This document shows positions 1,765-47,139 of a stretch of 64,000 nt of DNA, in pieces. The notes beneath the pieces are model-generated. The model ran no database searches and had not been told where the DNA came from. It worked only from the letters and a program-made list of their open reading frames with translations. The stretch's first letter is position 1. The number at the start of each line of letters is the position of its first letter. Origin of the DNA: Clostridia bacterium. Lineage in GTDB: Bacteria > Bacillota > Clostridia > Oscillospirales > UBA644. Position numbers and translations under genes: made by a program. The stretch covers positions 49,549 to 113,548 of the forward strand of contig JAGASR010000035.1 of assembly GCA_017621705.1 (NCBI GenBank). Direction: 5' to 3'.

Positions 1765-1780
1765 CATAAAACGATTAAAA

Positions 1781-1809
1781 CCGACAGAACAAAAATCTGT
1801 CGGTTTTTT
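1781..1809. terminator. bidirectional rho-independent terminator between convergent lacZ and the cassette array
   Basis: Stem CCGACAGA/TCTGTCGG (1781-1788/1796-1803) with a 7-nt loop. A T6 run follows on the + strand and TTTT follows on the - strand. Confidence 0.75.
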
Positions 1810-1813
1810 ATTT

Positions 1814-1829
1814 GATAGATTGGGATTGG
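1814..1829. repeat. terminal half-copy (last 16 nt only) of the 41-bp cassette junction element
   Basis: gatagattgggattgg matches 13/16 positions of the right half of the 2695-2735 copy. It directly abuts the HIT stop codon at 1830, as the full copies do. Confidence 0.6.
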
Positions 1830-2282
1830 CTAGGTGAAATGTTTCTTCATTAGTGTATACAGTGTTTTTTTATCATCATCGAGTAAAGAAGTCTCTTTTT
1901 TCAAAGCGTAATGGTGAGCGAACTCGGTATCTTCATAGGAGTGATTGTTAATTACAATCGCATTTTTGTATCGAGGTCTCACATGTAAATGTAAATGAGG
2001 ATTAGGTTTTGTTTCTTTATAAAAGTTATTTAATAAACAACTCCAATTACTCAATTCAGCTCCTAATACTTCCTTATAGACGTATTCTAATCTATCTATG
2101 ATTGTTTTCAAATCAATCCACTCAGAAACATTTAGTTCTGAAAGACTTCCGCAATGCCTATTCAGCACTAAAATACATCTACCTACATAGTCCTGTACAT
2201 CCGCTAAATAAACAGACCAATGTAATGATTTATATAATAACCATTCATTTTCTTTATAATCACACCATTCGCACATATTCAT
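1830..2282 (-). CDS. HIT (histidine triad) family protein; cassette 6
   Basis: Has the HxHxHxx triad HLHLHVRPRY. ATG at 2280-2282, with RBS AGGTG 12 nt after the junction element. Confidence 0.8.
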   Translation of the reverse strand: MNMCEWCDYKENEWLLYKSLHWSVYLADVQDYVGRCILVLNRHCGSLSELNVSEWIDLKTIIDRLEYVYKEVLGAELSNWSCLLNNFYKETKPNPHLHLHVRPRYKNAIVINNHSYEDTEFAHHYALKKETSLLDDDKKTLYTLMKKHFT

Positions 2283-2294
2283 CGTTCACACCTA

Positions 2295-2335
2295 CAAATG
2301 CTTATTTATCGAGCTGTTCGATTTATTGGAATCTG
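2295..2335. repeat. 41-bp cassette junction element, copy S1
   Basis: caaatgcttatttatcgagctgttcgatttattggaatctg. Nested inverted repeats. Lies between the stop of the 2337 ORF and the start of the 2282 ORF. Confidence 0.9.
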
Positions 2336-2694: not shown

Positions 2695-2735
2695 CAAATT
2701 CATATTTATCGAACTGTTCGATTTATTGGAATTGG
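2695..2735. repeat. 41-bp cassette junction element, copy S2
   Basis: caaattcatatttatcgaactgttcgatttattggaattgg. Contains the perfect 15-bp palindrome atcgaactgttcgat (2708-2722). Confidence 0.9.
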
Positions 2736-3665
2736 TCAAATTGAAATTATTGCTTCCACAAACTGGTTTGCCTTTTCTGTATGAATACCGTGCCCACAAT
2801 CAAATTGCTTGATTTTCATATTTTCAATCAAGGCATTGACTCTCTGCAAATCTTCATCAGACAATGCGCCTTGCAACAAACCATTCTCACCAATCGTTGT
2901 TTTTGCTTTCATAAACAGAGTGTCGCATTTGATTTTAGAAAGAAGGTCATTGTAATCAACAGTGTCATTGAACGAATCGTTATAAAAGGCTTCTCCAAAA
3001 TGAGGGTCATAATATTGCAGGCCATTAAAGCCTTCTAAAAACTTTTTAGGCCAAAACAGAACTTTCAGATTTTTGTCGGGATGTTTGGCTCGGTATTTCA
3101 ATGCGAAACCACTCAGTTTTTCTCTGACAGTTTCTCTGGATTCATCGGGAAAGAAATTCCAGCAATACTGATTCTTGAAATAATAATAGACGAAATCCTT
3201 TTCCACATCCTGTAAAAGGAAATTATGGCAGACAGAGGATAAATCCTTGTAATTGTATGTATTGTATCTTCTTTCGCCCCAGCTTGAGAAGAACGGAGGG
3301 TCTTCCAATATTAGTTTGGTGCATCTGGGAGATTGTGCTGCAATGTATGCTGCAATCAGTCCACCTGACGAATGACCCAACACGGCAACAGAATCACAAA
3401 TCACATTTTCAATAAAGTCCATGATGTCGTTGCCGATACTGACCAGATTGTATTTTTCCGGATTGCGGGAACTCTTTCCGTGCCCGTAATAATCTACCAT
3501 GTACACATGGTAGTACTTTGCAAGTTTTGTAACAACATTATTGAAGCTACAGGAGTTTGTCCCCTGGGCATGAAGCAGTAGTAATTTGTTTTTTGCGGTT
3601 CCAACCTCATAGTAGTTCAAAATACTGCTATCATCAATTTTATACTGTGCATTATGAATCTTCAT
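2736..3665 (-). CDS. alpha/beta hydrolase fold protein; cassette 4
   Basis: Nucleophile elbow GHSSGG and a C-terminal His region CGHGIH. 309 aa. Confidence 0.8.
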   Translation of the reverse strand: MKIHNAQYKIDDSSILNYYEVGTAKNKLLLLHAQGTNSCSFNNVVTKLAKYYHVYMVDYYGHGKSSRNPEKYNLVSIGNDIMDFIENVICDSVAVLGHSSGGLIAAYIAAQSPRCTKLILEDPPFFSSWGERRYNTYNYKDLSSVCHNFLLQDVEKDFVYYYFKNQYCWNFFPDESRETVREKLSGFALKYRAKHPDKNLKVLFWPKKFLEGFNGLQYYDPHFGEAFYNDSFNDTVDYNDLLSKIKCDTLFMKAKTTIGENGLLQGALSDEDLQRVNALIENMKIKQFDCGHGIHTEKANQFVEAIISI

Positions 3666-3683
3666 GTTGTATACTCACCTCGT

Positions 3684-3724
3684 CAAATTCTTATTTATCG
3701 AACTGTTCGACCTATTGGAATTTG
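3684..3724. repeat. 41-bp cassette junction element, copy S3
   Basis: caaattcttatttatcgaactgttcgacctattggaatttg. Confidence 0.9.
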
Positions 3725-3725
3725 A

Positions 3726-4331
3726 CTAACTCTCCGATTGTTCCTGTAACAATTCAAATTGTTCCGATGTTACAAGCCGCTTTAATGCAGTCATTGCTTT
3801 ATGATACTCATTTTCATAATGTGAGAACGTATCCGTTTTTTGTAGTTTGAATCCAATAGAAAGATATAAGAAAATGGCTTTCCAACTCCATGGCTGTGTA
3901 TGAATATAGACAGGAAGATTCTCTTGCTCTTTAAAACAATTCATAGTTGCATAACATAAGGCTTTTCCTAACCCCCGCCCATGATATTCTTCATCCACAA
4001 CCAGCCAGTGCAATGAAGATACGATAGACTCTTTGCGTCTATCTTGCCATGCAATACAAGACCCTACTATAAGGTTATCTTCATTCAGAAGAAAAAGAAT
4101 ATTGTTTATTAACGGACGATTCCGTAAATATGTTGAAATAAAGTAACTTTCTGCTTCTTCCAAAGACTCAAAGTCTCCAATGGAACACTCTAATTCTGCC
4201 CAAGCTTTTTCATATCCACTTTTATAGGGTACAATGGAGAATCCTTTTGGTAACACAACATCATTGTGTTGATAAGTATCACATCTTAAAATCGTGTTAT
4301 AAAAGGGTATTGTTCTATCCAACACTACCAT
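3726..4331 (-). CDS. GNAT family N-acetyltransferase; cassette 3 (start uncertain)
   Basis: Acetyl-CoA motif WLVVDEEYHGRGLGKAL. The ORF track starts at TTG 4340. ATG 4331 lies 1 nt from GGAGGG. GTG at 4325 has better RBS spacing. Confidence 0.75.
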   Translation of the reverse strand: MVVLDRTIPFYNTILRCDTYQHNDVVLPKGFSIVPYKSGYEKAWAELECSIGDFESLEEAESYFISTYLRNRPLINNILFLLNEDNLIVGSCIAWQDRRKESIVSSLHWLVVDEEYHGRGLGKALCYATMNCFKEQENLPVYIHTQPWSWKAIFLYLSIGFKLQKTDTFSHYENEYHKAMTALKRLVTSEQFELLQEQSES

Positions 4332-4342
4332 GCCCTCCAAAT

Positions 4343-4383
4343 CAAATTCTTATTTATCTAACTGTTCGACTTATTGGAATTTG
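4343..4383. repeat. 41-bp cassette junction element, copy S4
   Basis: caaattcttatttatctaactgttcgacttattggaatttg. Confidence 0.9.
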
Positions 4384-4384
4384 T

Positions 4385-4660
4385 CTACTTCCTTTTTTGT
4401 TTAAGTAAATATGCTACCAAATATGCAATGCCTGTTAGTATTACACCAAGCACGATATGTCCAGGCATAACCAAAATAAAGAACATTGCTCTATGCTCGC
4501 TGTAACTAATTATGGTTGGCATTTCGATAGCACTGTATGCAACGGCCAAGGCTGTTGAAACCAACGGAGAAATCCACAGTAGTTTTCTCTTAACAAAGAA
4601 AACTGCAACCACCGTAAGAACGGGTATTACACCCCAGAAAATAATGCTCCACCAATTCAT
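4385..4660 (-). CDS. small integral membrane protein (about 91 aa, 3 predicted TM segments); cassette 2
   Basis: Hydrophobic segments WSIIFWGVIPVLTVVAVFFV, ISPLVSTALAVAYSAI and FFILVMPGHIVLGVILTGIAYLVAYL. The start was moved to ATG 4660, which follows AAGGAG. The leader GACAAAGGAGTG..ATTGTATG is the same as for the 2678 gene. Confidence 0.65.
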   Translation of the reverse strand: MNWWSIIFWGVIPVLTVVAVFFVKRKLLWISPLVSTALAVAYSAIEMPTIISYSEHRAMFFILVMPGHIVLGVILTGIAYLVAYLLKQKRK

Positions 4661-4678
4661 ACAATCACACTCCTTTGT

Positions 4679-4720
4679 CAAATTCATATTTATCGAACTG
4701 TTCGATCTATTGGGAATTAG
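4679..4720. repeat. cassette junction element, copy S5 (42 bp, one extra g)
   Basis: caaattcatatttatcgaactgttcgatctattgggaattag. Confidence 0.9.
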
Positions 4721-4723
4721 TGA

Positions 4724-5086
4724 TTATACCGGTGTTCCCACTTCGATCAAGTTGCCGTCCAAATCGTAAAATCGGATTACTCGTTGCCCCCAACTATGTG
4801 TCATAAGATGATTTACATATTCAATATCGGGATACAGTCTTTCTAATTTTTCGACAAAGGATTCGATATCCTGCTCCTCAAAATACAATTCGCAAGAGTT
4901 GCTCTTCGGAACAATATCTCTATCTAAAAACGATTTCCATATTTTCTCGTCTTGAAGGACAAGACCTTCCGTTAAAATCAGATTGCCGTCGTTGTCAAGC
5001 ACCAAATCTATACCAAATAAATCGTGATAGAATTTTCTCGATTTCTCTATATCTTTAACAACAATCAGAATGTCCTTCAATTTCAT
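4724..5086 (-). CDS. VOC/glyoxalase-bleomycin resistance family protein; cassette 1
   Basis: N-terminus MKLKDILIVVKDIEKSRKFYHDLFG and C-terminus VIRFYDLDGNLIEVG are typical of the glyoxalase-fold beta-alpha-beta-beta-beta unit. Confidence 0.75.
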   Translation of the reverse strand: MKLKDILIVVKDIEKSRKFYHDLFGIDLVLDNDGNLILTEGLVLQDEKIWKSFLDRDIVPKSNSCELYFEEQDIESFVEKLERLYPDIEYVNHLMTHSWGQRVIRFYDLDGNLIEVGTPV

Positions 5087-5099
5087 ATAATTTCTCCGT

Positions 5100-5123
5100 C
5101 AAATTCTTTTTATCGAACTGTTC
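5100..5123. repeat. proximal half-copy (first 24 nt only) of the cassette junction element
   Basis: caaattctttttatcgaactgttc. The sequence then diverges (tgtaagtatagg). It is complementary in extent to the half-copy at 1814-1829. Confidence 0.8.
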
Positions 5124-5127
5124 TGTA

Positions 5128-5155
5128 AGTATAGGTACATCTTTTTCGGTTACAA
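5128..5155 (-). promoter_or_regulatory. candidate promoter reading into the cassette array
   Basis: On the minus strand: TTGTAA (5155-5150), 16-nt spacer, TATACT (5133-5128). The -10 ends 4 nt before the half-site begins. TATACT is the -10 used at other promoters in this window. Confidence 0.5.
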
Positions 5156-7410: not shown

Positions 7411-8832
7411 TTAACCTGCTTCGCCCCAGACAGCTTCGATGCCGCGCATAGAGGGAAGAAGATGCTCTTCGATAAGAGCTTCGATCTCGTCCCTGTGCGC
7501 TTCGATATATTCGGCGGTCGTTTTGTTGTAAGTGAGCCACTCGTGCATCTGATCATACATCTGATAATGGAAATACGTGTAGTCCGCACTGAAGAACATA
7601 TTATAGAAAACATCCGAGTCGCGCTTATCGTAAAAATAGTTACGGGTCATGAGCGCGAGGATATCGTCGAGCGTCTGATACTCTTCGAACGGTTCATAGA
7701 TAGCGCTTATAATTGCGGCTGTAGCTTCGGGATGTTTAGACATACGTGAAAACGAAATACATCTTTCGATATTATGAAGGAAACCGAAAGTATATCCGGG
7801 TTCGACATCCGGACCGGTGGGCCAGGTTACGAGACCGAAGTTATCCATTTCCTTTGCAATTCTCGAGCCGAGACCGATTATGCTTTCCGAATAGAGAGAG
7901 CCGAGAACGGTCGTTCCGTTGATAAGAGCATCAACGGGTTCGGTCGTACTGTCGATAGTATGAGCAAGAGGTCCGTAGAAAATATCGCGGCCCGTATCCA
8001 TCGCTTTGATAGCTTCCGGAGTGAAAAAGCCGTATTCATATTCGCCTTTATCATTCTTTTCAACATAATGAGAACCGTTGGAAAGAAGGAACATATCGCC
8101 GAAAGTATGAGTACTGCAGGTCATGGCATAGTGTTTAACGTCACTGCCTTCGGCAACATAGTAAAGCTCGAGGACTTCCTTGAATTTGTCCCATGTCCAT
8201 TCACCGTTTTCGAGAAGATCACGTGGATCAGTCGCACCGAGAGTTGCTATATGGTTTTCATTGATAACGATCGGACAGCCGAACGATACGGAAACTTCGG
8301 GCCAGAGCAGAGGCACGATGCCGTAAAGGTCATCTTCATAATAAATAACCTCGAGCATATTTCTGTAGCCCCATTTGGCTTCGTTTCTGTAATCTATATA
8401 TTCTTCGATCTCGGACATACCTACGAGCATACCGAGACGAGCGACATCCGCCCACATATCGGAAATACCGGAAATAACATCGCAGAAAAATGCACCGCTC
8501 GCCGATGCCGCAACGAAATTACGGCAGGAATAATAGTTATCGGTATATTTGATATCGAGCTTGCAGTTAAGCCTTTCCTGAACATCTTTAAGGCGCTGAA
8601 CCGCCATATCGCCGAACTGAGTATCAAGTTCGTAACCGAGACAGCTGTCAAACGCAAGAGCCGCAGCCGTAAGACCGACTTCATAAACGATCTCTACGCC
8701 TTCAAGATCAAGTTCACCTGCTTTTTTGACAAAATCAACGTCAAAAACTTCTTCTTCCGCAGAAGCGTTGCACGCCGTTGCAATCAAAGAAATAAGCATC
8801 GCAAGAAGCAATAGTTTAGTTATTTTTTTCAT
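7411..8832 (-). CDS. solute-binding-like lipoprotein, tandem paralog 1 (family assignment tentative)
   Basis: The start was moved to ATG 8832 (MKKITKLLLLAMLISLIATAC lipobox, RBS GAGGAG). Alignable along its full length with the three neighbouring genes. The GEWTWDKFKEVLELY region resembles type-1 sugar SBPs. Confidence 0.6.
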   Translation of the reverse strand: MKKITKLLLLAMLISLIATACNASAEEEVFDVDFVKKAGELDLEGVEIVYEVGLTAAALAFDSCLGYELDTQFGDMAVQRLKDVQERLNCKLDIKYTDNYYSCRNFVAASASGAFFCDVISGISDMWADVARLGMLVGMSEIEEYIDYRNEAKWGYRNMLEVIYYEDDLYGIVPLLWPEVSVSFGCPIVINENHIATLGATDPRDLLENGEWTWDKFKEVLELYYVAEGSDVKHYAMTCSTHTFGDMFLLSNGSHYVEKNDKGEYEYGFFTPEAIKAMDTGRDIFYGPLAHTIDSTTEPVDALINGTTVLGSLYSESIIGLGSRIAKEMDNFGLVTWPTGPDVEPGYTFGFLHNIERCISFSRMSKHPEATAAIISAIYEPFEEYQTLDDILALMTRNYFYDKRDSDVFYNMFFSADYTYFHYQMYDQMHEWLTYNKTTAEYIEAHRDEIEALIEEHLLPSMRGIEAVWGEAG

Positions 8833-8854
8833 AGTTTTCTCCTCTTTTATTTTA

Positions 8855-8883
8855 AGTATAACAGATATACGATGCATTGTCAA
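8855..8883 (-). promoter_or_regulatory. promoter of paralog 1
   Basis: TTGACA (8883-8878), 17 nt, TGT-TATACT (8860-8855). Confidence 0.75.
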
Positions 8884-8886
8884 TAC

Positions 8887-8916
8887 AAAAAACTCCCCGA
8901 AGGAATTCTTCGGGGG
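8887..8916 (-). terminator. terminator of paralog 2
   Basis: Minus strand: CCCCGAAG-AATTC-CTTCGGGG followed by AGTTTTTT. Confidence 0.8.
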
Positions 8917-8932
8917 ATTTATACCGTAAAAA

Positions 8933-10345
8933 TTATTCAGCTTTGCCGTAAACAGCTTCAAGACCGCGCATTGCGGGAGCGGCATATTTTTCTATGTTTT
9001 CCGCAGCATAGTCTTCGTTTGATTCAAGATATTCCGTTACAGATTTATTAGAAGTAAGCCAACCGCCTAAAAGACCCGACATACCTTCGTTGAAATACAT
9101 ATAATAAGAGTTAATATACATTCCGTAATAAACTTCGGCATCGCGTCTGTCGAAGAAATAAGTCCTGGTCATAAAATCAATAACAGAGTCCATGTTGGGA
9201 TATTCTTTAAACGGTTCATAGAGTGCGCTGATAGCCACTGCGGCGGCTTCGGATTGCTGTGAACTTCGAGAAAAAGCGATACAGCTATGAATATTTGAAT
9301 AATATCCGAAAACATATCCGGGTTCAACATCCGGTCCATGCGGCCATGAAAGAAGACCGAAATTTGACATTTCACGCGCAATTCTGCCCCTTACGCCAAC
9401 CACTTCGTATGATCTTAAAGCACCGAGCACGGTTTTTCCCGAAAGCAGATTATCCGTGCAAACATCGTATGATTGCTTACAGATTGTATGAGAATTTGGG
9501 CCGTTAAATATTTCAATACCGCGTTCCATGGCTTTCTTTGCTTCTTCAGTATATAAACCGGAAACATATTCACCTTTTTCGTCTTTTTCAACAAATGTAG
9601 AACCGTTCGAAAATGCGAACATGGAAGCAAACATTCCTGCATCTGCTGTGAGAGAATAATGCTTGATCTCTCCGCCTTCTTCAACATAATATCTGCCGAG
9701 ACAATCTTCAAAAACATCCCATGTCCACTGCTTATTTTCAATATATTCTCTGGGGTCTGTCTCACCGATAGCCGCAATAAGATCTTCATTCACGACAATG
9801 GGGTCACGAATATAAACGGAAAGTTCCGGCCAAAGAAGAGGAGTAAGACCGTAGATATCGTCTTCGTAAGCCATGATTTCAAGCATATTCCGATAGCCCC
9901 ACTTCGATTCATTTGTATAATCGATATAATCTCCGAGCTCGGAAAGGCCGACAAGCATACCGACTCTCGCCGCTTGAACCAACGGTCCAGAAGCGCCCAT
10001 GGCTACGTCTGAAATAAACGTACCCGAAACAGCGGCGGTTAAATATTCCGTAGGATCTCCGACGCCGCTCAATAATTCAAATGTACAGTTAAGATTTTTT
10101 TCAACCTCATCAAGACGTTCAGCCGCCATATCAGCAAAAACCGTATCAATTTCGTAACCGAGGAAAGTATCTGCCTGACTTTCTGCAAGATATACCTTAT
10201 AAACAATATTTGCGCCTTCAAGATCTACACCTGAAGAACTCGAAGTAAAATCCATATCAAAAACTTCGGGCTCGGTAGAACCGCACGCAGAAGCAAATAC
10301 GGAAATAAGCATTGCAAGAAGTAATATTTTAGCTATCTTTTTCAT
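8933..10345 (-). CDS. solute-binding-like lipoprotein, tandem paralog 2
   Basis: MKKIAKILLLAMLISVFASAC lipobox. Shares blocks such as KWGYRNMLE, YEDDxYG, LLWPE and FSR with paralogs 1, 3 and 4. Confidence 0.6.
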   Translation of the reverse strand: MKKIAKILLLAMLISVFASACGSTEPEVFDMDFTSSSSGVDLEGANIVYKVYLAESQADTFLGYEIDTVFADMAAERLDEVEKNLNCTFELLSGVGDPTEYLTAAVSGTFISDVAMGASGPLVQAARVGMLVGLSELGDYIDYTNESKWGYRNMLEIMAYEDDIYGLTPLLWPELSVYIRDPIVVNEDLIAAIGETDPREYIENKQWTWDVFEDCLGRYYVEEGGEIKHYSLTADAGMFASMFAFSNGSTFVEKDEKGEYVSGLYTEEAKKAMERGIEIFNGPNSHTICKQSYDVCTDNLLSGKTVLGALRSYEVVGVRGRIAREMSNFGLLSWPHGPDVEPGYVFGYYSNIHSCIAFSRSSQQSEAAAVAISALYEPFKEYPNMDSVIDFMTRTYFFDRRDAEVYYGMYINSYYMYFNEGMSGLLGGWLTSNKSVTEYLESNEDYAAENIEKYAAPAMRGLEAVYGKAE

Positions 10346-10366
10346 AATTTTCTCCTCTTTTCTTTA

Positions 10367-10396
10367 AGTATAACACAAAGAACGGTGGTTTGTCAA
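10367..10396 (-). promoter_or_regulatory. promoter of paralog 2
   Basis: TTGACA (10396-10391), 18 nt, TGT-TATACT (10372-10367). Confidence 0.7.
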
Positions 10397-10428
10397 GAAA
10401 AAAAGTTCCACGGTTTTCCCGTGGAACT
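10397..10428 (-). terminator. terminator of paralog 3
   Basis: Minus strand: AGTTCCACG-loop-CGTGGAACT followed by TTTTTTT. Confidence 0.8.
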
Positions 10429-10444
10429 TATCATAAACAAAATT

Positions 10445-11866
10445 TTATTCAGCGTCGCCCCAGACAGCTTCGATACCGCGCATGGTGGGGAGAATATATT
10501 CTTCGAGACGTTCATTCATCATATCTTCATTTGCTTCGATGAATTCAGTGGGAGTTTTGCCTGATGTGATCCACTGATGGAACATTCCGTACATACCGCT
10601 GTAATGGAAATATGTATAATCGGAGTTAAAATACATATCGTAGAAAACTTCGGAGTCACGTCTGTCGTAGAAATAGTTACGTGTCATAAGATCGATGATG
10701 CTGTCGAGAGTTTCGTAGCCTTCGAACGGTTCATATATTGCATTGATGATGGTTGCTGCGACCTCGGGATGCTTGGAAACGCGAGAGAAAGCGATACATC
10801 TTTCGATATTACTGTGAATACCGAATGCATAACCGGGGTCGACATCGGGACCGGTCGGCCAGGAAAGGATACCGAAATTATCCATTTCCTTTGCAATTCT
10901 CGAACCGAGACCGATAATACTATCGGAGTTTACGGCGCTCATAACGGTCGTGCCGCCGAGGATTGCTTCTACAGCGTCGGTCTTTTTATCGATAGTTTCG
11001 CCGAGAGTACCGCGGAAAATATCGATACCTTCATCCATCGCCTTCATAGCTCTGGAGGTAAAGAAACCGGGGATAAATTCACCTTTTTCATCTTTTTCGG
11101 CATAGTGAGAACCGTTGGAAAGGATAAACATATTGCCGAAAGTCGCATCGGAACAGGTAAGAGCGTAATGTTTAACTTCACTGCCTTCTTTGACATAATA
11201 AAGTTCAAGCACTTCGCGGAACTTTTCCCATGTCCATTCGCCGTTTTCGAGATAATCACGGGGATCAGTCGCACCGAGCTGAGAGATAAGCTCTTCATTG
11301 ACAACGAGAGGACTGCCGTACGAAACGGAAACTTCGGGCCAGAGAAGAGGAACAAGGCCATAGAGGTCGTCTTCATAATAAACGACTTCGAGCATATTTC
11401 TGTAGCCCCATTTAGCTTCGTTTCTGAAATCGATATAATCTTCGAGTTCGGACATACCGATTACCATGCCGATACGGGCAACATCCGCCCACATATCGGA
11501 AGTACCTGAAATAACGTCACACATAAAAGTGCCGCTGGCGGAACAAGCAACGAAATTTCGGCAGGAAACACCGTTATTTACATAATTTGTTTTAACGACG
11601 CAGTTGAGATTTTCCTGAACGTCTTTAAGTCTCTGAACCGCAAGATCACCGAACTGTGTATCAAGTTCGTAACCGAGACAGTTATCGTATGCGAGCGCGG
11701 CATCCGTAAGACCTATCTCATAAACGATCTCGATACCCTCAAGGTCGATCTTGCCTGCTTCTTTGACAAAGTCCATATCAAAAACTTCCGGTTCGGCAGA
11801 GCCGCACGCTGAAGCAAATACGGAAATAATCATCGCAAGAAGTAATATTTTAGCTATCTTTTTCAT
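10445..11866 (-). CDS. solute-binding-like lipoprotein, tandem paralog 3
   Basis: Same lipobox N-terminus. By eye it is the closest relative of paralog 1. Confidence 0.6.
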   Translation of the reverse strand: MKKIAKILLLAMIISVFASACGSAEPEVFDMDFVKEAGKIDLEGIEIVYEIGLTDAALAYDNCLGYELDTQFGDLAVQRLKDVQENLNCVVKTNYVNNGVSCRNFVACSASGTFMCDVISGTSDMWADVARIGMVIGMSELEDYIDFRNEAKWGYRNMLEVVYYEDDLYGLVPLLWPEVSVSYGSPLVVNEELISQLGATDPRDYLENGEWTWEKFREVLELYYVKEGSEVKHYALTCSDATFGNMFILSNGSHYAEKDEKGEFIPGFFTSRAMKAMDEGIDIFRGTLGETIDKKTDAVEAILGGTTVMSAVNSDSIIGLGSRIAKEMDNFGILSWPTGPDVDPGYAFGIHSNIERCIAFSRVSKHPEVAATIINAIYEPFEGYETLDSIIDLMTRNYFYDRRDSEVFYDMYFNSDYTYFHYSGMYGMFHQWITSGKTPTEFIEANEDMMNERLEEYILPTMRGIEAVWGDAE

Positions 11867-11891
11867 ATTTCAGTTCCTTTACAGTTTTTTC

Positions 11892-11921
11892 AGTATAGCA
11901 CGAAAAACGGTAATTTGTCAA
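11892..11921 (-). promoter_or_regulatory. promoter of paralog 3
   Basis: TTGACA (11921-11916), 18 nt, TGC-TATACT (11897-11892). Confidence 0.7.
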
Positions 11922-11963
11922 GAAAAATTTTTGTTTTTTCAAGAAACTTCTATTGTCAAGCAC

Positions 11964-11988
11964 AAAAACTCCCTCGGATGAGGGAGTT
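11964..11988 (-). terminator. terminator of paralog 4
   Basis: Minus strand: AACTCCCTC-ATCC-GAGGGAGTT running into TTTTT. Confidence 0.75.
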
Positions 11989-12014
11989 TTGAATGTCTGA
12001 ATATCTTTTATATA

Positions 12015-13433
12015 TTATTCTTCGCCCCAGAGAGCATCGATACCGCGAACGGAAGGAAGAACGTATTCGTTGATATCGTTTGTGATCTTTTCGGTATTGG
12101 CTTCGATATATTCGACGATAGATTTATTGGAAGAGAGCCAGTCCTGAGTGGAGCCGTGCAGACCGTAATGGAAATAGTTATATTCGGATGAACGGAACAT
12201 ATCATAGAAGACTTTAGCATCTCGTCTGTCGAAGAAATAGCTGTGAGCCATATGGTCGATGATATCGTCGAGAGTTTCGTAACCTTCAAACGGTTCATAG
12301 ATCGCATTGATTATAGCCGCGGTTGCTTCGGGATTATGAGAAGCGCGGGAGAATGCAATACACATTTCAATATTGGAATGTGTAGCAAAATTGTAGCCGG
12401 GTTCAACATCGGGACCGATAGGCCAGGAAAGGATACCGAAGTTATCCATTTCTTTGGTGATTCTGGAACCGATAGTGACGATCTTGTCGCCGTTCATAGC
12501 GCCCATAACGGTTTTGCCGCTGATAAGGGAGTCTACAGCGTCGGATTTACCGTCGATAGTGTGAGCGGTATCACCGTAATAGATATCGTTTGCAGCTTCC
12601 ATAGCTTTGATCGCAGTATCGGAAATAAAACCAGGGACATATTTACCGTTAGCATCTTTTTCAGCGTAAAGGTCGCCGTTTGAACGTACAAACATAGCGG
12701 CAAAAGCGCCTGTGCCGCAGGTGAGAGCGTAATGTTTTACTTCGCCGCCCTCTTCGACATAGTAAAGTTCGAGAACTTCTTTGAATTTATCCCAGGTCCA
12801 TTCGCCGTTTTCGATATAGTCACGCGGGTCTGTAGCACCGATGGAAGCAATAATATTTTCGTTTACAACGATGGGAGATTCGAAAGTGATTGCAATCTCG
12901 GGCCAGAGAAGAGGAATTACGCCGTAAAGGTCGTCTTCGTAATAAACGACTTTAAGCATATTTCTGTAGCCCCATTTTTCTTCGTTGCGGTAGTCGATAA
13001 AGTCTTCAAGTTCGGACATACCTACAACCATGCCTATACGGGCAACGTCTGCCCACATATCAGAAATACCGGAAATCGCGTCACACATAAAAGTGCCGCT
13101 GGCGGATGCCGCAACGAAAAGACCGCAGGACGAGCCTTTTTCTCTGTAATTTACGTTTACTTTACAGTTGAGCTGTTCCTGAACATCTTTAAGTCTCTGT
13201 GCGGCGAGGTCTCCGAACGGAGTATCGACTTCGTAGCCGAGGCAGGACTCCATACCGAGAGCCGAAGACGGAAGACCGAATTCATATACCATTTCAAAGC
13301 CTTCAAGGTCGATACCCGAGCTTTCGCCGACAAAATCCATATCAAAAACTTCTTCTTCGGCCGTTGCGTTACAAGCTGTCGCGATAAGCGAGATAAGCAT
13401 GGCAAGAAGCAATATTTTTGCTATTTTCTTCAT
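12015..13433 (-). CDS. solute-binding-like lipoprotein, tandem paralog 4
   Basis: MKKIAKILLLAMLISLIATAC lipobox. Collinear with paralogs 1-3. Confidence 0.6.
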   Translation of the reverse strand: MKKIAKILLLAMLISLIATACNATAEEEVFDMDFVGESSGIDLEGFEMVYEFGLPSSALGMESCLGYEVDTPFGDLAAQRLKDVQEQLNCKVNVNYREKGSSCGLFVAASASGTFMCDAISGISDMWADVARIGMVVGMSELEDFIDYRNEEKWGYRNMLKVVYYEDDLYGVIPLLWPEIAITFESPIVVNENIIASIGATDPRDYIENGEWTWDKFKEVLELYYVEEGGEVKHYALTCGTGAFAAMFVRSNGDLYAEKDANGKYVPGFISDTAIKAMEAANDIYYGDTAHTIDGKSDAVDSLISGKTVMGAMNGDKIVTIGSRITKEMDNFGILSWPIGPDVEPGYNFATHSNIEMCIAFSRASHNPEATAAIINAIYEPFEGYETLDDIIDHMAHSYFFDRRDAKVFYDMFRSSEYNYFHYGLHGSTQDWLSSNKSIVEYIEANTEKITNDINEYVLPSVRGIDALWGEE

Positions 13434-44175: not shown

Positions 44176-45849
44176 TTAGAATAAACCGACGATATTGCCG
44201 TCGTTATCGATATCGATATTATCTGCTGCGGGAACTTTGGGAAGACCGGGCATTGTGAGGATATCGCCGAGGTAAACGACGATGAAGCCTGCGCCGGAGC
44301 AAAGTTTAAGATCGCGTACGGTGATTCTGAAACCTTTGGGACGGCAGAGAAGTTTCGGATCATCGGAGAAGGAATACTGGGTCTTTGCAACGCAGATGGG
44401 AAGGTTGGAAGCGCCGAGAGCGTTGATATCGGCGATAGTCTTCTTTGCTGCTGCGGTGAAATCGACACCGTCTGCACCGTAGATCTTTTCTGCGACAGCA
44501 CCGATCTTTTCTTCGATGGAAGCGTTGATATCGTAGGTAAACTTGAGTTCGGACGGTTCATCGCAAGCCTTGACGACTTTTTCAGCGAGAGCGACAGCAC
44601 CGTTGCCGCCTTCCGCAAAACCGTAAGAACATTCGAATTCTGCGCCGCTTTCTTCGCATGCTTTTCTTACGAGATCCTTTTCAGCTTCGGTATCGGTTCC
44701 GAATACGTTAAGAGCAACGACAACGGGAACATTGAAGCCACGGAGGTTTTCGATATGTTTGCGAAGATTGTCGAGGCCTTTTTCGAGAGCTTCGAGGTTT
44801 TCGATCGCACTGTCTTTGACGAGAGCGCCGCCGTTATATTTAAGAGCACGGACGGTTGCGACGAGAACAATACAGTTGGGGCTGAAGCCCATCTTGCGGC
44901 ACTTGATATTGAGGAATTTTTCAGCGCCGAGGTCGGAGCCGAAACCTGCTTCGGTTACGCAATAATCAAATCTGTCGAGAGCGAGAGAAGTTGCGCGGAC
45001 GGAGTTACAGCCGTGAGCGATATTTGCGAACGGGCCGCCGTGGATGAAGCAGGGAGTATGGTTAAGAGTCTGAACGAGGTTGGGAAGAATTGCGTCCTTG
45101 AGAAGAACAGCCATTGCACCGTCAGCCTTGACATCGCGTGCGTAAACGGGAGTGCCGTCGTATCTGTTGGCAATATGGATGTTGCCGAGACGTGCTTTAA
45201 GGTCTGCGAGGTCTGCGGAAAGGCAGAGAACAGCCATAACTTCGGATGCAACGGTGATCTGGAAGCCGTCCTGACGAACGATGCCGTCGGTCGTTTTACC
45301 CATACCTACAACGATATTACGGAGCGCACGGTCGTTCATATCGAGAACACGTTTGAAGATGATCTGTTTCGGGTCGATATTCTGAGCGTTGCCCTGATAG
45401 ATATGGTTATCGATCATAGCGCAGAGAAGGTTGTTTGCGGAAGTTATTGCATGGAAGTCGCCTGTAAAATGAAGGTTGATATCTTCCATGGGAACGACCT
45501 GAGCGTAACCACCGCCGGTAGCGCCGCCTTTGAGGCCGAAAACGGGGCCGAGAGACGGTTCACGGAGAGCGATTGCGGCATTTTTGCCGAGAATATTGAG
45601 AGCTTCGCCGAGGCCGATGGTAGTTGTGGTCTTACCTTCGCCGAGCGGAGTGGGGTTTATAGCGGTAACGAGGATAAGTTTACCGTTCTTTCCCTTTTTA
45701 TCTTTGACTGCCTTTTCGGAGATCTTTGCTTTGTACGGACCGTAGTAAACAAGATCTTCCTCGGCAAAACCGGATTTTTCAGCTATTTTCTTTATAGGCC
45801 AGAGATCAGCGGCTTTGGAAATTTCAATATCCGAAGGTATTTTTTTCAT
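44176..45849 (-). CDS. fhs: formate--tetrahydrofolate ligase
   Basis: [16 protein letters not shown]-loop. 557 aa. Confidence 0.95.
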
Positions 45850-45881: not shown

Positions 45882-46967
45882 TTAGAGAAGATTTAATTTT
45901 TTAAGCTGGGGAACGACTCTTTTCATAATGAGCCAGAGTATCGCAGTATAAAGGGGAACGCCGATAAAAACTGCAACGGCAAGTCTCGGAACGAGGTATA
46001 CCCAGAAGGAAACGTTCGAATACGCAATACTGATCCAGTACGAGTTGAGTACGGATGTTATGACGGTCGCAGTAAGGCAGAAAAGCGTGAGCTTCGTAAG
46101 TGCCGGGCCGTAGTCGGTTATTACGCGAAGAAGAACGACTGCGGAAAGGACCGTAAAGACATACGGAACGAACGAAACATCAACCGAAGCGCTTGTGTTT
46201 GCAAGGGATTTCGGGATCTGAAGAATCGTTGTAAAAGAAACGACACCGCCGATTATAAACGCAAAAAATGCGGAAAGAAGCGCAGGGAATTTACGTTTAT
46301 AGAAGAACGCAACGATCGCGATAAGTCCGAAAAGAACGGATGCGACGTATCCGAAAGAAACTGTTGCGTAAAGGTCGGACATCTGAATACCGGAATAAAT
46401 AAGAGATGCGGTATCGGGAGCTTCGACAGAATTGAGAACGGAAGTGAAGACCGTCTGATATTCTGCGGTAGCAACGAGCGCCTGCCATACGGTAAGCTTG
46501 GTTTCCGAACCGTCCGCAAACGTAAACGAAAGCGACGGGATAAACAGCAGAACACCGCAAAGAATAACGGAAACTGCCGAAACAGCGGAAAAGATATTGC
46601 CCGAAAGATTTGATTTTACGGTCTTCTTATCATCGAACATCGAGCCGTCTCTGATAAAAAGAAGCTTGAAAAAGCCGCCGAGCGCACCTGCGAGCATTGT
46701 CGAAAGCGTTATACCAGGAATGATCGGACCGAGCGGAACGAGAAGACAGCACACAAGATCCTGAACTCCGCCTACGAGAGCGCCCCATATCGGGCCGTAA
46801 AGAAAGCCCGCGAGGAAAATGGGAACGAAGCTGATATTGACAGACAAACTTTTCGAACCGAAAAGCGGAAGCGTAACGCCGAGGAATCTGTCAAGCACGA
46901 AACCTACCGCCGCAAAGATCGCGCAGACGATAATGGTTTTCACGTGGTTTTTTACTGTTTTTGTCAT
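45882..46967 (-). CDS. folT: folate-family ECF transporter S component with a large internal insertion
   Basis: The N-terminal 100 aa (ISFVPIFLAGFLYGPIWGALVGGVQDL) and the C-terminal ~75 aa (LNSYWISIAY...LVPRL) are FolT-like. They are separated by about 185 aa of extra hydrophobic sequence. A THF riboswitch lies upstream. Confidence 0.75.
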   Translation of the reverse strand: MTKTVKNHVKTIIVCAIFAAVGFVLDRFLGVTLPLFGSKSLSVNISFVPIFLAGFLYGPIWGALVGGVQDLVCCLLVPLGPIIPGITLSTMLAGALGGFFKLLFIRDGSMFDDKKTVKSNLSGNIFSAVSAVSVILCGVLLFIPSLSFTFADGSETKLTVWQALVATAEYQTVFTSVLNSVEAPDTASLIYSGIQMSDLYATVSFGYVASVLFGLIAIVAFFYKRKFPALLSAFFAFIIGGVVSFTTILQIPKSLANTSASVDVSFVPYVFTVLSAVVLLRVITDYGPALTKLTLFCLTATVITSVLNSYWISIAYSNVSFWVYLVPRLAVAVFIGVPLYTAILWLIMKRVVPQLKKLNLL

Positions 46968-47030: not shown

Positions 47031-47131
47031 CACAGCGGACGCGACACCGAACCGCAAAACGGCACATGACCGTTTTTTCGTCCGAAGACGACTTCCCATT
47101 CTTCGGCACTTAACGCTCGGCATCTACTCTG
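47031..47131 (-). promoter_or_regulatory. THF (tetrahydrofolate) riboswitch
   Basis: Minus strand: CAGAGUAGAUGCCGAGCGUUAAGUGCCGAAGAAUGGGAAGUCGUCUUCGGACGAA...GCGGUUCGGUGUCGCGUCCGCUGUG. It shares the conserved blocks AGAGUAGAUG, GCGUUAAGUG, GAAUGGGAnGUCGUC, ACGAA and UCCGCU with the E. siraeum THF aptamer. Stem changes are compensatory (CCGAAG/CUUCGG, CACAG/CUGUG). Confidence 0.9.
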
Positions 47132-47139
47132 TAAAAAAC

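Follow-up and report, generated by a model that had tools for sequence, protein, structure and literature searches.

A 41-bp site at the junctions of shuffled, promoterless single-gene cassettes in Clostridia

A 41-nt element that recurs between the genes of a cassette array in clostridial DNA is, from the comparison of loci, strongly supported as a cassette junction within which exchange takes place. Here we describe this site in a 64-kb stretch of DNA (the whole of the stretch analysed, hereafter the window) and at 80 further loci outside it that carry near-identical sites. From locus to locus the neighbours of a gene are reshuffled, with homology breaking inside the site; the arrays end in half sites framed by a promoter and a terminator, and no recombinase gene is linked to them. 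We think it probable that the 41-bp element is the double-stranded recombination site of mobile, promoterless single-gene cassettes, served in trans by an unlinked recombinase, and we weigh this reading below against a folded single-strand site, a passive linker, a miniature transposon and a regulatory element.

In the window, six cassettes of one gene each, delimited by five full 41-nt copies and a half copy at either end, lie between positions 1815 and 5123 (Table 1). All six genes are on the minus strand, with the sites on the plus strand, and the GC content of the array is foreign to its surroundings (about 35% versus 45–50% in the flanks), falling at the distal half site S0. A search with the 41-nt consensus at three or fewer mismatches hit positions 2295, 2695, 3684, 4343 and 4679, all on the plus strand, and gave no match in shuffled sequences; consensus and half-copy scans of the remaining 59 kb found no further copy. 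The sites are spaced 400, 989, 659, 336 and 420 nt apart and each interval holds one minus-strand ORF, with a Shine–Dalgarno sequence about 5 nt past the site and the start codon 13–17 nt past it. The element described in an initial annotation of this DNA, at 2695–2735 (CAAATTCATATTTATCGAACTGTTCGATTTATTGGAATTGG), is therefore real, with its consensus in five places, one ORF per interval and both half copies present.

Several details of that annotation carry over with changes. Its two 6-nt segments between the arms are indeed direct and not inverted repeats, and the inner-arm mismatches that it listed for S3 and S4 (gttcgaC, atcTaac) are present, with one in S1 as well (atcgaGc). The outer 7-nt arms that it gave as reverse complements are perfect in S3 and S4 and imperfect in the other copies; likewise its perfect inner palindrome, the 15-nt ATCGAACTGTTCGAT, is exact at 2708 and 4692 and imperfect in the other three full copies. 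S4 is the commonest variant among genome matches except for its last base (G in S4, A in those). At the array ends, S0 agrees with 12–13 of 16 consensus positions and abuts the stop codon of the last cassette gene, the same placement as in full sites; S6 ends in AACTGTTC followed by tgtaag. The terminator directly past the distal end is common to the array and a β-galactosidase gene. Every contig found for this species, by look-up of the flanking 396-aa protein or a cassette protein, has the same six-cassette array, and no empty site or variant array appeared among them; the array thus gives no sign of current activity there.

Table 1. Features of the cassette array in the window (slashes mark the break between site and neighbouring sequence)
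Feature	Position	Strand	Remarks
Bidirectional hairpin terminator	1777..1807		12-bp stem then T run, on both strands
S0, terminal right half site, tt/GATAGATTGGGATTGG	1815-1830	+	site positions ~26-41
Cassette 6 ORF, 150 aa	1830..2282	-	no family match
S1, full site	2295..2335	+	3 mismatches to window consensus
Cassette 5 ORF, 113 aa	2337..2678	-	lipoprotein-like N-terminus; no family match
S2, full site	2695..2735	+	inner 15-nt palindrome exact
Cassette 4 ORF, 309 aa, alpha/beta hydrolase	2736..3665	-	Abhydrolase_1, 53 bits
S3, full site	3684..3724	+	consensus match
Cassette 3 ORF, ~200 aa, GNAT acetyltransferase	3726..4340	-	Acetyltransf_1/7
S4, full site (ATCTAAC...GTTCGAC)	4343..4383	+	consensus match
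Cassette 2 ORF, 91 aa, membrane protein	4385..4660	-	no family match
S5, full site	4679..4719	+	inner palindrome exact
Cassette 1 ORF, 120 aa, glyoxalase/bleomycin-resistance fold	4724..5086	-	Glyoxalase_2, 103.7 bits
S6, terminal left half site, CAAATTCTTTTTATCGAACTGTTC/tgtaag	5100..5123	+	site positions 1-25, 1-nt deletion
Sigma-70-like promoter TTGTAA-16-TATACT	5128..5155	-	9/12 consensus positions; weak alone; directed into array

A degenerate-pattern scan located the site in eight species-representative MAGs assigned to Acutalibacteraceae, Ruminococcus, Lachnospiraceae, Congzhengia (Oscillospiraceae) and unclassified Clostridia, including one 3-kb site-bearing contig binned as Paludibacteraceae; viral contigs gave none. 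With four inner-arm pairs left free (positions 14–17 and 25–28), a second pattern added 72 metagenome contigs, several of them named human gut. A profile search over all loci returned 112 full-length matches and many half copies, and after repeat contigs of the window species were set aside there were 99 full-length occurrences, 90 of them unique. Plasmid and phage collections held nothing relevant (megablast with whole arrays, blastn with the 41-mer, tblastn with a cassette protein), and literature searches by topic and by literal sequence found no description of the site. Rfam at gathering thresholds, applied to the window and six loci, had no family for the site and matched only a THF riboswitch elsewhere. 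This riboswitch (window 47031–47133, minus strand; RF01831, 74.9 bits) lies upstream of a 361-aa membrane protein (45882–46967), and a further gene downstream of it (44176–45849) by eye resembles a putative formate–tetrahydrofolate ligase. Also in the window, at 7411–13433 on the minus strand, is a tandem run of four paralogous lipoprotein genes (about 470 aa each; no Pfam match on record), adjoining fucose-isomerase and aldolase genes.

The length of the site is constant at 41 nt, and within any locus all sites share one orientation. Its commonest form among the collected loci is CAAATTCTTATTTTCCTAACTGTTCGACCTATTGGAATTTG, and the inner arms of the commonest forms read TCCTAAC and GTTCGAC or ATCTAAC and GTTCGAC. 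The layout is 17+7+17, with imperfect inverted arms of about 17 bp (CAAATTC-N10) around an asymmetric 7-bp centre, AACTGTT, and a dyad axis on a single base, nt 21, so that the spacer is of odd length. Symmetric positions are 1–7/35–41, 10–11/31–32, 16/26 and 18–20/22–24, the outermost 7 bp being the most strongly symmetric. Invariant columns of the collected variants include C20–C25, although the collection scans demanded exact matches in parts of the site and conservation estimates are biased at those positions. Four diverged secondary copies, which were not picked by a search pattern, keep the invariant core CTAACTGTTC intact with 4–10 mismatches elsewhere (product of chance probabilities about 3e-4).

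A related site is found in a low-GC lineage; its two outer arms have changed jointly (CAAATTAC...GTAATTTG), exchanging C7:G35 for A:T. Members of this related family (CAAATTACAATTT... and ...GATAAATAGTAATTTG) were seen in L086 (9900–10560), L088, L090 (4740–6036) and L092 (1700–3874); here the halves of the site are often split by a terminator plus a promoter, and a second recurrent imperfect palindrome, AATCGGAAnATTAAGATATTACGAT, stands at unit borders. At another locus, L026 (2290–2345), the junction after a lnu(C)-like gene has collapsed to TAAATTC followed directly by AAATTTG, the outer heptamers being fused and the inner 27 nt absent.

That the element is a junction is indicated by its flanks, as the initial annotation had supposed. 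We compared 60 nt on each side of every site and found that the 90 unique occurrences join 64 left-flank families to 67 right-flank families. In 112 pairs of sites one flank is shared at >85% identity and the other is unrelated, with homology breaking within the 41 nt (six of the discordant pairs shown are at 88–92% identity; the position tallies use ≥95%). Upstream of one gene start, that of a 165-aa AAA_18 P-loop protein, eight different partners occur. Within the site, polymorphisms at positions 1 and 3 follow the left flank and gene, those at positions 28–29 and 40–41 the right. The GTTT variant of positions 14–17 travels with the right-hand side in three loci (L008, L057 and L026), so some exchanges occurred left of position 14, as homologous recombination would give. 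Given this block and the scatter of junction positions, homologous exchange or gene conversion across the 41 identical bp probably contributes to the reshuffling of neighbours as well. The crossover is not resolvable to one phosphodiester bond, as there is little central polymorphism and the half sites are decayed.

The units so joined are uniform in form. The start codon typically falls 12–19 nt past the site, the stop codon −7 to +3 nt from the next site and a Shine–Dalgarno sequence within 18 nt upstream of the called start (40 of 61 flanks); unit length is 336–2140 bp with a median of 656. Cassettes keep 17–25 nt of the site at their 5′ end and 16–24 nt at their 3′ end.

Arrays follow a common order of promoter, half site, ORFs with their sites, half site and terminator. 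Besides those of the window, terminal half sites are found in more than 20 contexts that are unrelated to each other, as expected of a junction; left half sites end at positions 13–17 or 24/25 and right half sites start at 16–24, so that the break points are scattered over about 12 nt and are not a single point. The exchange point placed by the initial annotation between positions 25 and 26 holds for the window but does not generalize: breaks elsewhere lie from about 13 to 25, most often between 17 and 18, and a break after 24/25 is found in the window, L008/L057 and L015. At many loci the left half stops after 13–17, an extended −10 box stands 7–20 nt on and the DNA beyond is unrelated; more than 12 loci besides the window have a −10 element at this distance upstream of the left half site, and a −35 element lies at the right distance wherever traced (L001, L003, L004, L052, L065, L075 and the window). 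At distal ends, positions 16–24 onward remain beside an ICE backbone gene or a hairpin terminator, the latter as in the window in L018, L029, L041, L063, L067 and L070. The centre AACTGTT can occur in both left and right half sites, and in the window and L070 one array end has AACTGTT and the other a foreign 7-mer.

The left half sites of nine loci (L037, L052, L061, L064, L065, L075, L085, L105 and L112) have about 17 nt in common beyond the half site, although their contexts are unrelated. This stretch is GTGAGTT followed by TATTATATCA, which on the opposite strand reads as an extended −10 box; in L105 and L112 the common part is limited to GTGAGTTTATTA, after which they continue AAACA and AAGCA. 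In four of these contexts where it was traced (L052/L061, L065 and L075) a −35 element is at the right spacing, with unrelated DNA beyond; in L037 its assignment is ambiguous. The shared stretch may reflect selection for expression, preference for a target or an attI-like partner.

The initial annotation went further, suggesting that the site may be attC-like. In that model a single strand folds into a 7-bp outer stem, a 6×6 internal loop and an inner stem and is recognised in this form, with one strand exchanged as in integrons. We consider this very unlikely. Taken by themselves, three of the window copies could fold in this way, the DNA of S2, S3 and S5 giving nested hairpins of −4.4 to −6.1 kcal/mol (z −2.2 to −3.4; −1.4 to −6.1 kcal/mol over the window copies) and S3 reaching −9.3 kcal/mol as RNA; the inner heptamers resemble RYYYAAC/GTTRRRY, ATCTAAC matching exactly. 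The annotation had, however, named conservation of sequence without conservation of pairing as the outcome that would tell against the fold, and this is the pattern of the further copies. The commonest variants elsewhere fold as single-stranded DNA at −1.4, −1.3, −0.3 and −1.1 kcal/mol, no better than shuffles (z about 0 for the first two), and one common form as RNA, at −3.3 kcal/mol, does no better than shuffles either. Over 39 distinct variants the drawn structure pairs 75.5% of cells versus 75.0% in shuffles, with a covariation score of 0.032 versus 0.035, and three of the seven inner pairs are broken in most of them (14–28 unpaired in 33, 15–27 in 23 and 17–25 in 33). The inner stem of the commonest forms is limited to AAC/GTT and one further pair, CAAATTCTTATTTTCCTAACTGTTCGACCTATTGGAATTTG breaking it without compensation. 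As the left inner tetranucleotide varies (ATCG, ATCT, TCCT, TTCT, GTTT, TCCG, CCCT; the right stays CGAC or CGAT), pairs are broken and covariation is absent, the perfect palindrome of the window is a local variant and the conserved feature is sequence. The joint C7:G35 to A:T change of the low-GC lineage would suit a paired stem, but a dimeric protein site predicts the same. Nor do the other hallmarks of attC appear: the folds, the covariation and the fixed 41-nt length, with no variable loop, do not match a single-strand fold of variable length with R″/R′ and L″/L′ boxes; IntI and attI are not seen beside the array, with no tyrosine recombinase in the 64-kb window or within 10 kb on either side of the array and only two, unrelated and of ICE type, at about 110 loci; and the break points lie mid-site, not at the G/TT of R′.

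The results instead favour the fallback of the same annotation, a double-stranded core site for a tyrosine or serine recombinase. A tyrosine-recombinase core site consists of two imperfect inverted repeats around a short asymmetric central region (PMC1914069), a generic description to which the 41-bp site conforms. We propose that the site is a sequence-specific double-stranded core, its arms flanking the 7-bp centre. A cassette would begin at its 5′ end with the site part ending AAATAAGAATTTG, followed by its own ribosome-binding site, and finish at its 3′ end with the site part beginning CAAATTCC. With every site of an array in direct repeat, a cassette would be lost or gained by recombination between two of them; the arrays would be placed downstream of a host or ICE promoter, with a terminator at their far end, and integration into non-site DNA would leave half sites at both array ends. 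Conservative site-specific recombination, with cleavage in the centre, is suggested by breakpoints within the site, position-specific foreign junctions, a constrained asymmetric centre, fixed length and direct orientation. Because the centre is odd in length and half sites overlap by up to 7 nt, the best-fitting enzyme would be a tyrosine recombinase whose overlap is 7 bp and which accepts a heterologous overlap at secondary targets. A serine recombinase is possible: 20-bp half sites with conserved outer motifs would suit a central 2-bp overlap, although the single-base dyad axis and the half-site overlap suit it less well.

This enzyme would act in trans, not being encoded beside the arrays. 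Tyrosine integrases, large serine recombinases and IS110 transposases are without a homologue in the 64-kb window (best E-value 0.023, in a spurious frame), and there is no recombinase within 10 kb on either side of the window array. All-against-all clustering of 1,052 ORFs from the loci showed only cassette families to be recurrent, with no recurrent recombinase, and at about 110 loci the only such enzymes were two unrelated tyrosine integrases plus three large serine recombinases, each of them a typical ICE integrase. Neither an excised circle nor an empty site came to light, and none of the loci is a circular contig. The transposases of IS110-family elements were considered as the enzyme of the system and rejected, their copies being insertions that interrupt sites at two positions and in two orientations. 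These elements, in L002 (305 to about 2000) and L051 (about 3470–5040), match DEDD_Tnp_IS110 and Transposase_20 and encode proteins of 402 and 417 aa that are 45% identical; they have a common end, CCTGCTAATAAAA, and the non-coding part of the L002 copy contains a target-like sequence, CTTATTT...AAGAATTTGA, that could be a guide.

Three further explanations compete with a double-stranded recombination site. It is unlikely that there is no dedicated enzyme and that the 41 nt are a conserved intergenic linker (a 5′-UTR or translation element plus a 3′ element) whose neighbours are reshuffled by homologous recombination after horizontal transfer, even though every gene keeps AAATAAGAATTTG and a Shine–Dalgarno sequence close upstream of its start, chromosomal singletons behind their own promoter included. 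The lack of a linked recombinase, the recombination of the GTTT block left of position 14 and a polymorphism linkage that forms a gradient and not a sharp step would all follow. Yet more than 20 independent junctions between site and foreign DNA fall within the central third of the site, and homologous recombination cannot make these. The linker also leaves unexplained why unrelated genes have the same two ends, the most constrained segment of diverged copies is the centre and not the UTR-proximal part, and 41 bp is a short stretch for RecA-dependent exchange to be efficient. A purely regulatory element with no part in recombination, be it an operator, an RNA processing or stability signal or a REP/BIME-like repeat, would account for the dyad symmetry, the position between all genes of an operon-like array and the complementarity of the 5′ and 3′ halves in the transcript. 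It is nevertheless highly improbable: several families share the element next to different genes, and the homology ends within it; the fold is weak and without an Rfam match; and the window copies are confined to the 3.3-kb array, unlike the many dispersed intergenic copies of REP/BIME-like repeats. A regulatory role in addition to recombination is possible.

We also regard as improbable that each cassette is a miniature non-autonomous transposon with terminal inverted repeats of about 20 bp (GTTCGAT..GAATTTG and CAAATTC..ATCGAAC), whose transposase acts in trans and prefers insertion beside an existing end, abutted ends then mimicking one 41-bp site. Such abutted-end junctions and end-targeting are known for IS30 and IS26. 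The cassette ends are mutual inverted repeats, most clearly in the low-GC lineage (GATAAATAGTAATTTG ... CAAATTACAATTTATC), in which promoter and terminator lie outside the stand-alone units. Passenger-carrying IS, for example MTnSag1 with lnu(C), have been described in Firmicutes; they combine terminal inverted repeats, a target-site duplication and a transposase (PMC5704250). The inverted ends have their counterpart here, but no target-site duplication flanks the window array, L070 or L086 and no transposase is linked, the only ones seen being those of the IS110 insertions. Moreover, at least four right half sites carry AACT, and three left halves TGTT, past the supposed end of the repeat.

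In function, the arrays have the attributes of integron-like cassette arrays: compact, mostly promoterless, co-oriented units of a single ORF, a repeated site between them, combinatorially interchangeable neighbours and an upstream promoter, with a cargo rich in acetyltransferases, nucleotidyltransferases, glyoxalase-fold proteins and resistance genes. The targeting of the site by IS110-family elements parallels that of integron attC sites by the IS1111-attC elements. At the level of the site the likeness ends. In attC sites structure is conserved and sequence and length (about 57–141 nt) vary, whereas the present site is sequence-conserved at a fixed 41 bp, with no stable fold, extrahelical-base architecture or variable loop; exchange falls mid-site and leaves site DNA at both cassette ends, whereas an integron cassette has almost the whole attC at its 3′ end. 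The arrays resemble CALINs, which are integron cassette arrays lacking a nearby integrase (PMC4889954), in that no integrase is near. No IntI or attI platform was found, and the host phylum is Bacillota (Firmicutes), in which integrons have been identified only occasionally, their failure to establish there being an open question (PMC4889954).

Imperfect inverted repeats around a short asymmetric centre are shared with loxP, FRT, dif, difSL and the attI simple site, and conservation is highest in the centre, as a need for identical overlaps would predict; unlike loxP/FRT/dif-type cores, the site has longer arms (17 bp) and its strongest symmetry in the outermost 7 bp. Mimicry of dif was rejected for the three sequences compared: ungapped alignment to B. 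subtilis dif, E. coli dif and difSL gave no match better than those of shuffles. The pdif modules of Acinetobacter plasmids are bounded by 28-bp dif mimics (11+6+11) that are Xer-dependent and alternate in inverted orientation. They too are small, often hold resistance genes between short sites and have no recombinase of their own, a housekeeping enzyme in trans being presumed, but the present sites are 41 bp, all direct and unlike these dif sequences, and the modules are single promoterless ORFs. Tn916-family elements make no target duplication, and their 6–7-bp staggered overlap need not match the target, so that one junction retains the overlap of the element and the other that of the target. 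The mixed end pattern of the window (S6 versus S0) and of L070 is like such coupling sequences, and the arrays often ride on ICEs of this kind (L026). Unlike Tn916, the units are single genes without an integrase, arranged head-to-tail, with an invariant overlap and no arm-type sites seen.

Among the cassette proteins, a Vat streptogramin acetyltransferase, an ANT(6) and a Lnu(C) score above NCBI curated cut-offs; the remaining cargo includes many GNATs, kinase-like P-loop proteins, GrpB and MerR and XRE regulators. The commonest cassette gene encodes the 165-aa AAA_18 P-loop protein (L054 2856–3350 and homologues P0001–P0120), which has 7,352 clusters at E ≤1e-20 and whose only NCBIfam match, to the Gar/GrdA gentamicin-resistance ATP-binding family, is weak (39.5 bits against a cut-off of 170). 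Single chromosomal copies of this gene also exist; they have a promoter of their own and decayed half sites. A unit in L092 (2756–3220) encodes a GyrI-like/Cass2 protein (PF14526), of a family originally named after members in integron cassettes. Some arrays are embedded in ICE-like DNA, where they follow an impB-family gene or lie close to a relaxase, a TraG-like ATPase, a Tn916-type integrase or large serine recombinases.

Against the reading of a double-stranded recombination site we count the failure to find a recombinase, circle or empty site, the scatter of break points over about 12 nt, the linkage of the GTTT block and the bias of the scans. There is a substantial chance that the arrays represent a separate system with its own enzyme. 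They may be a self-standing gene-capture system native to Bacillota, parallel to integrons in function and separate from them in evolution and mechanism, with its recombinase elsewhere (ICE-borne, housekeeping or guide-directed), and one that would already be moving Vat, ANT(6) and Lnu(C) among gut Clostridia. Integrons are the textbook gene-capture device; the site described here has a different logic and occurs in several families of gut and rumen Clostridia, partly on conjugative elements. If this is right, Bacillota would have their own route for assembling and reshuffling accessory and resistance genes. Such a system would also explain the fragmented metagenome assembly of these regions, where most site-bearing contigs are 1–5 kb, and its short, defined site would serve as a probe with which to recover cassettes and, through co-occurrence, to look for the missing enzyme.
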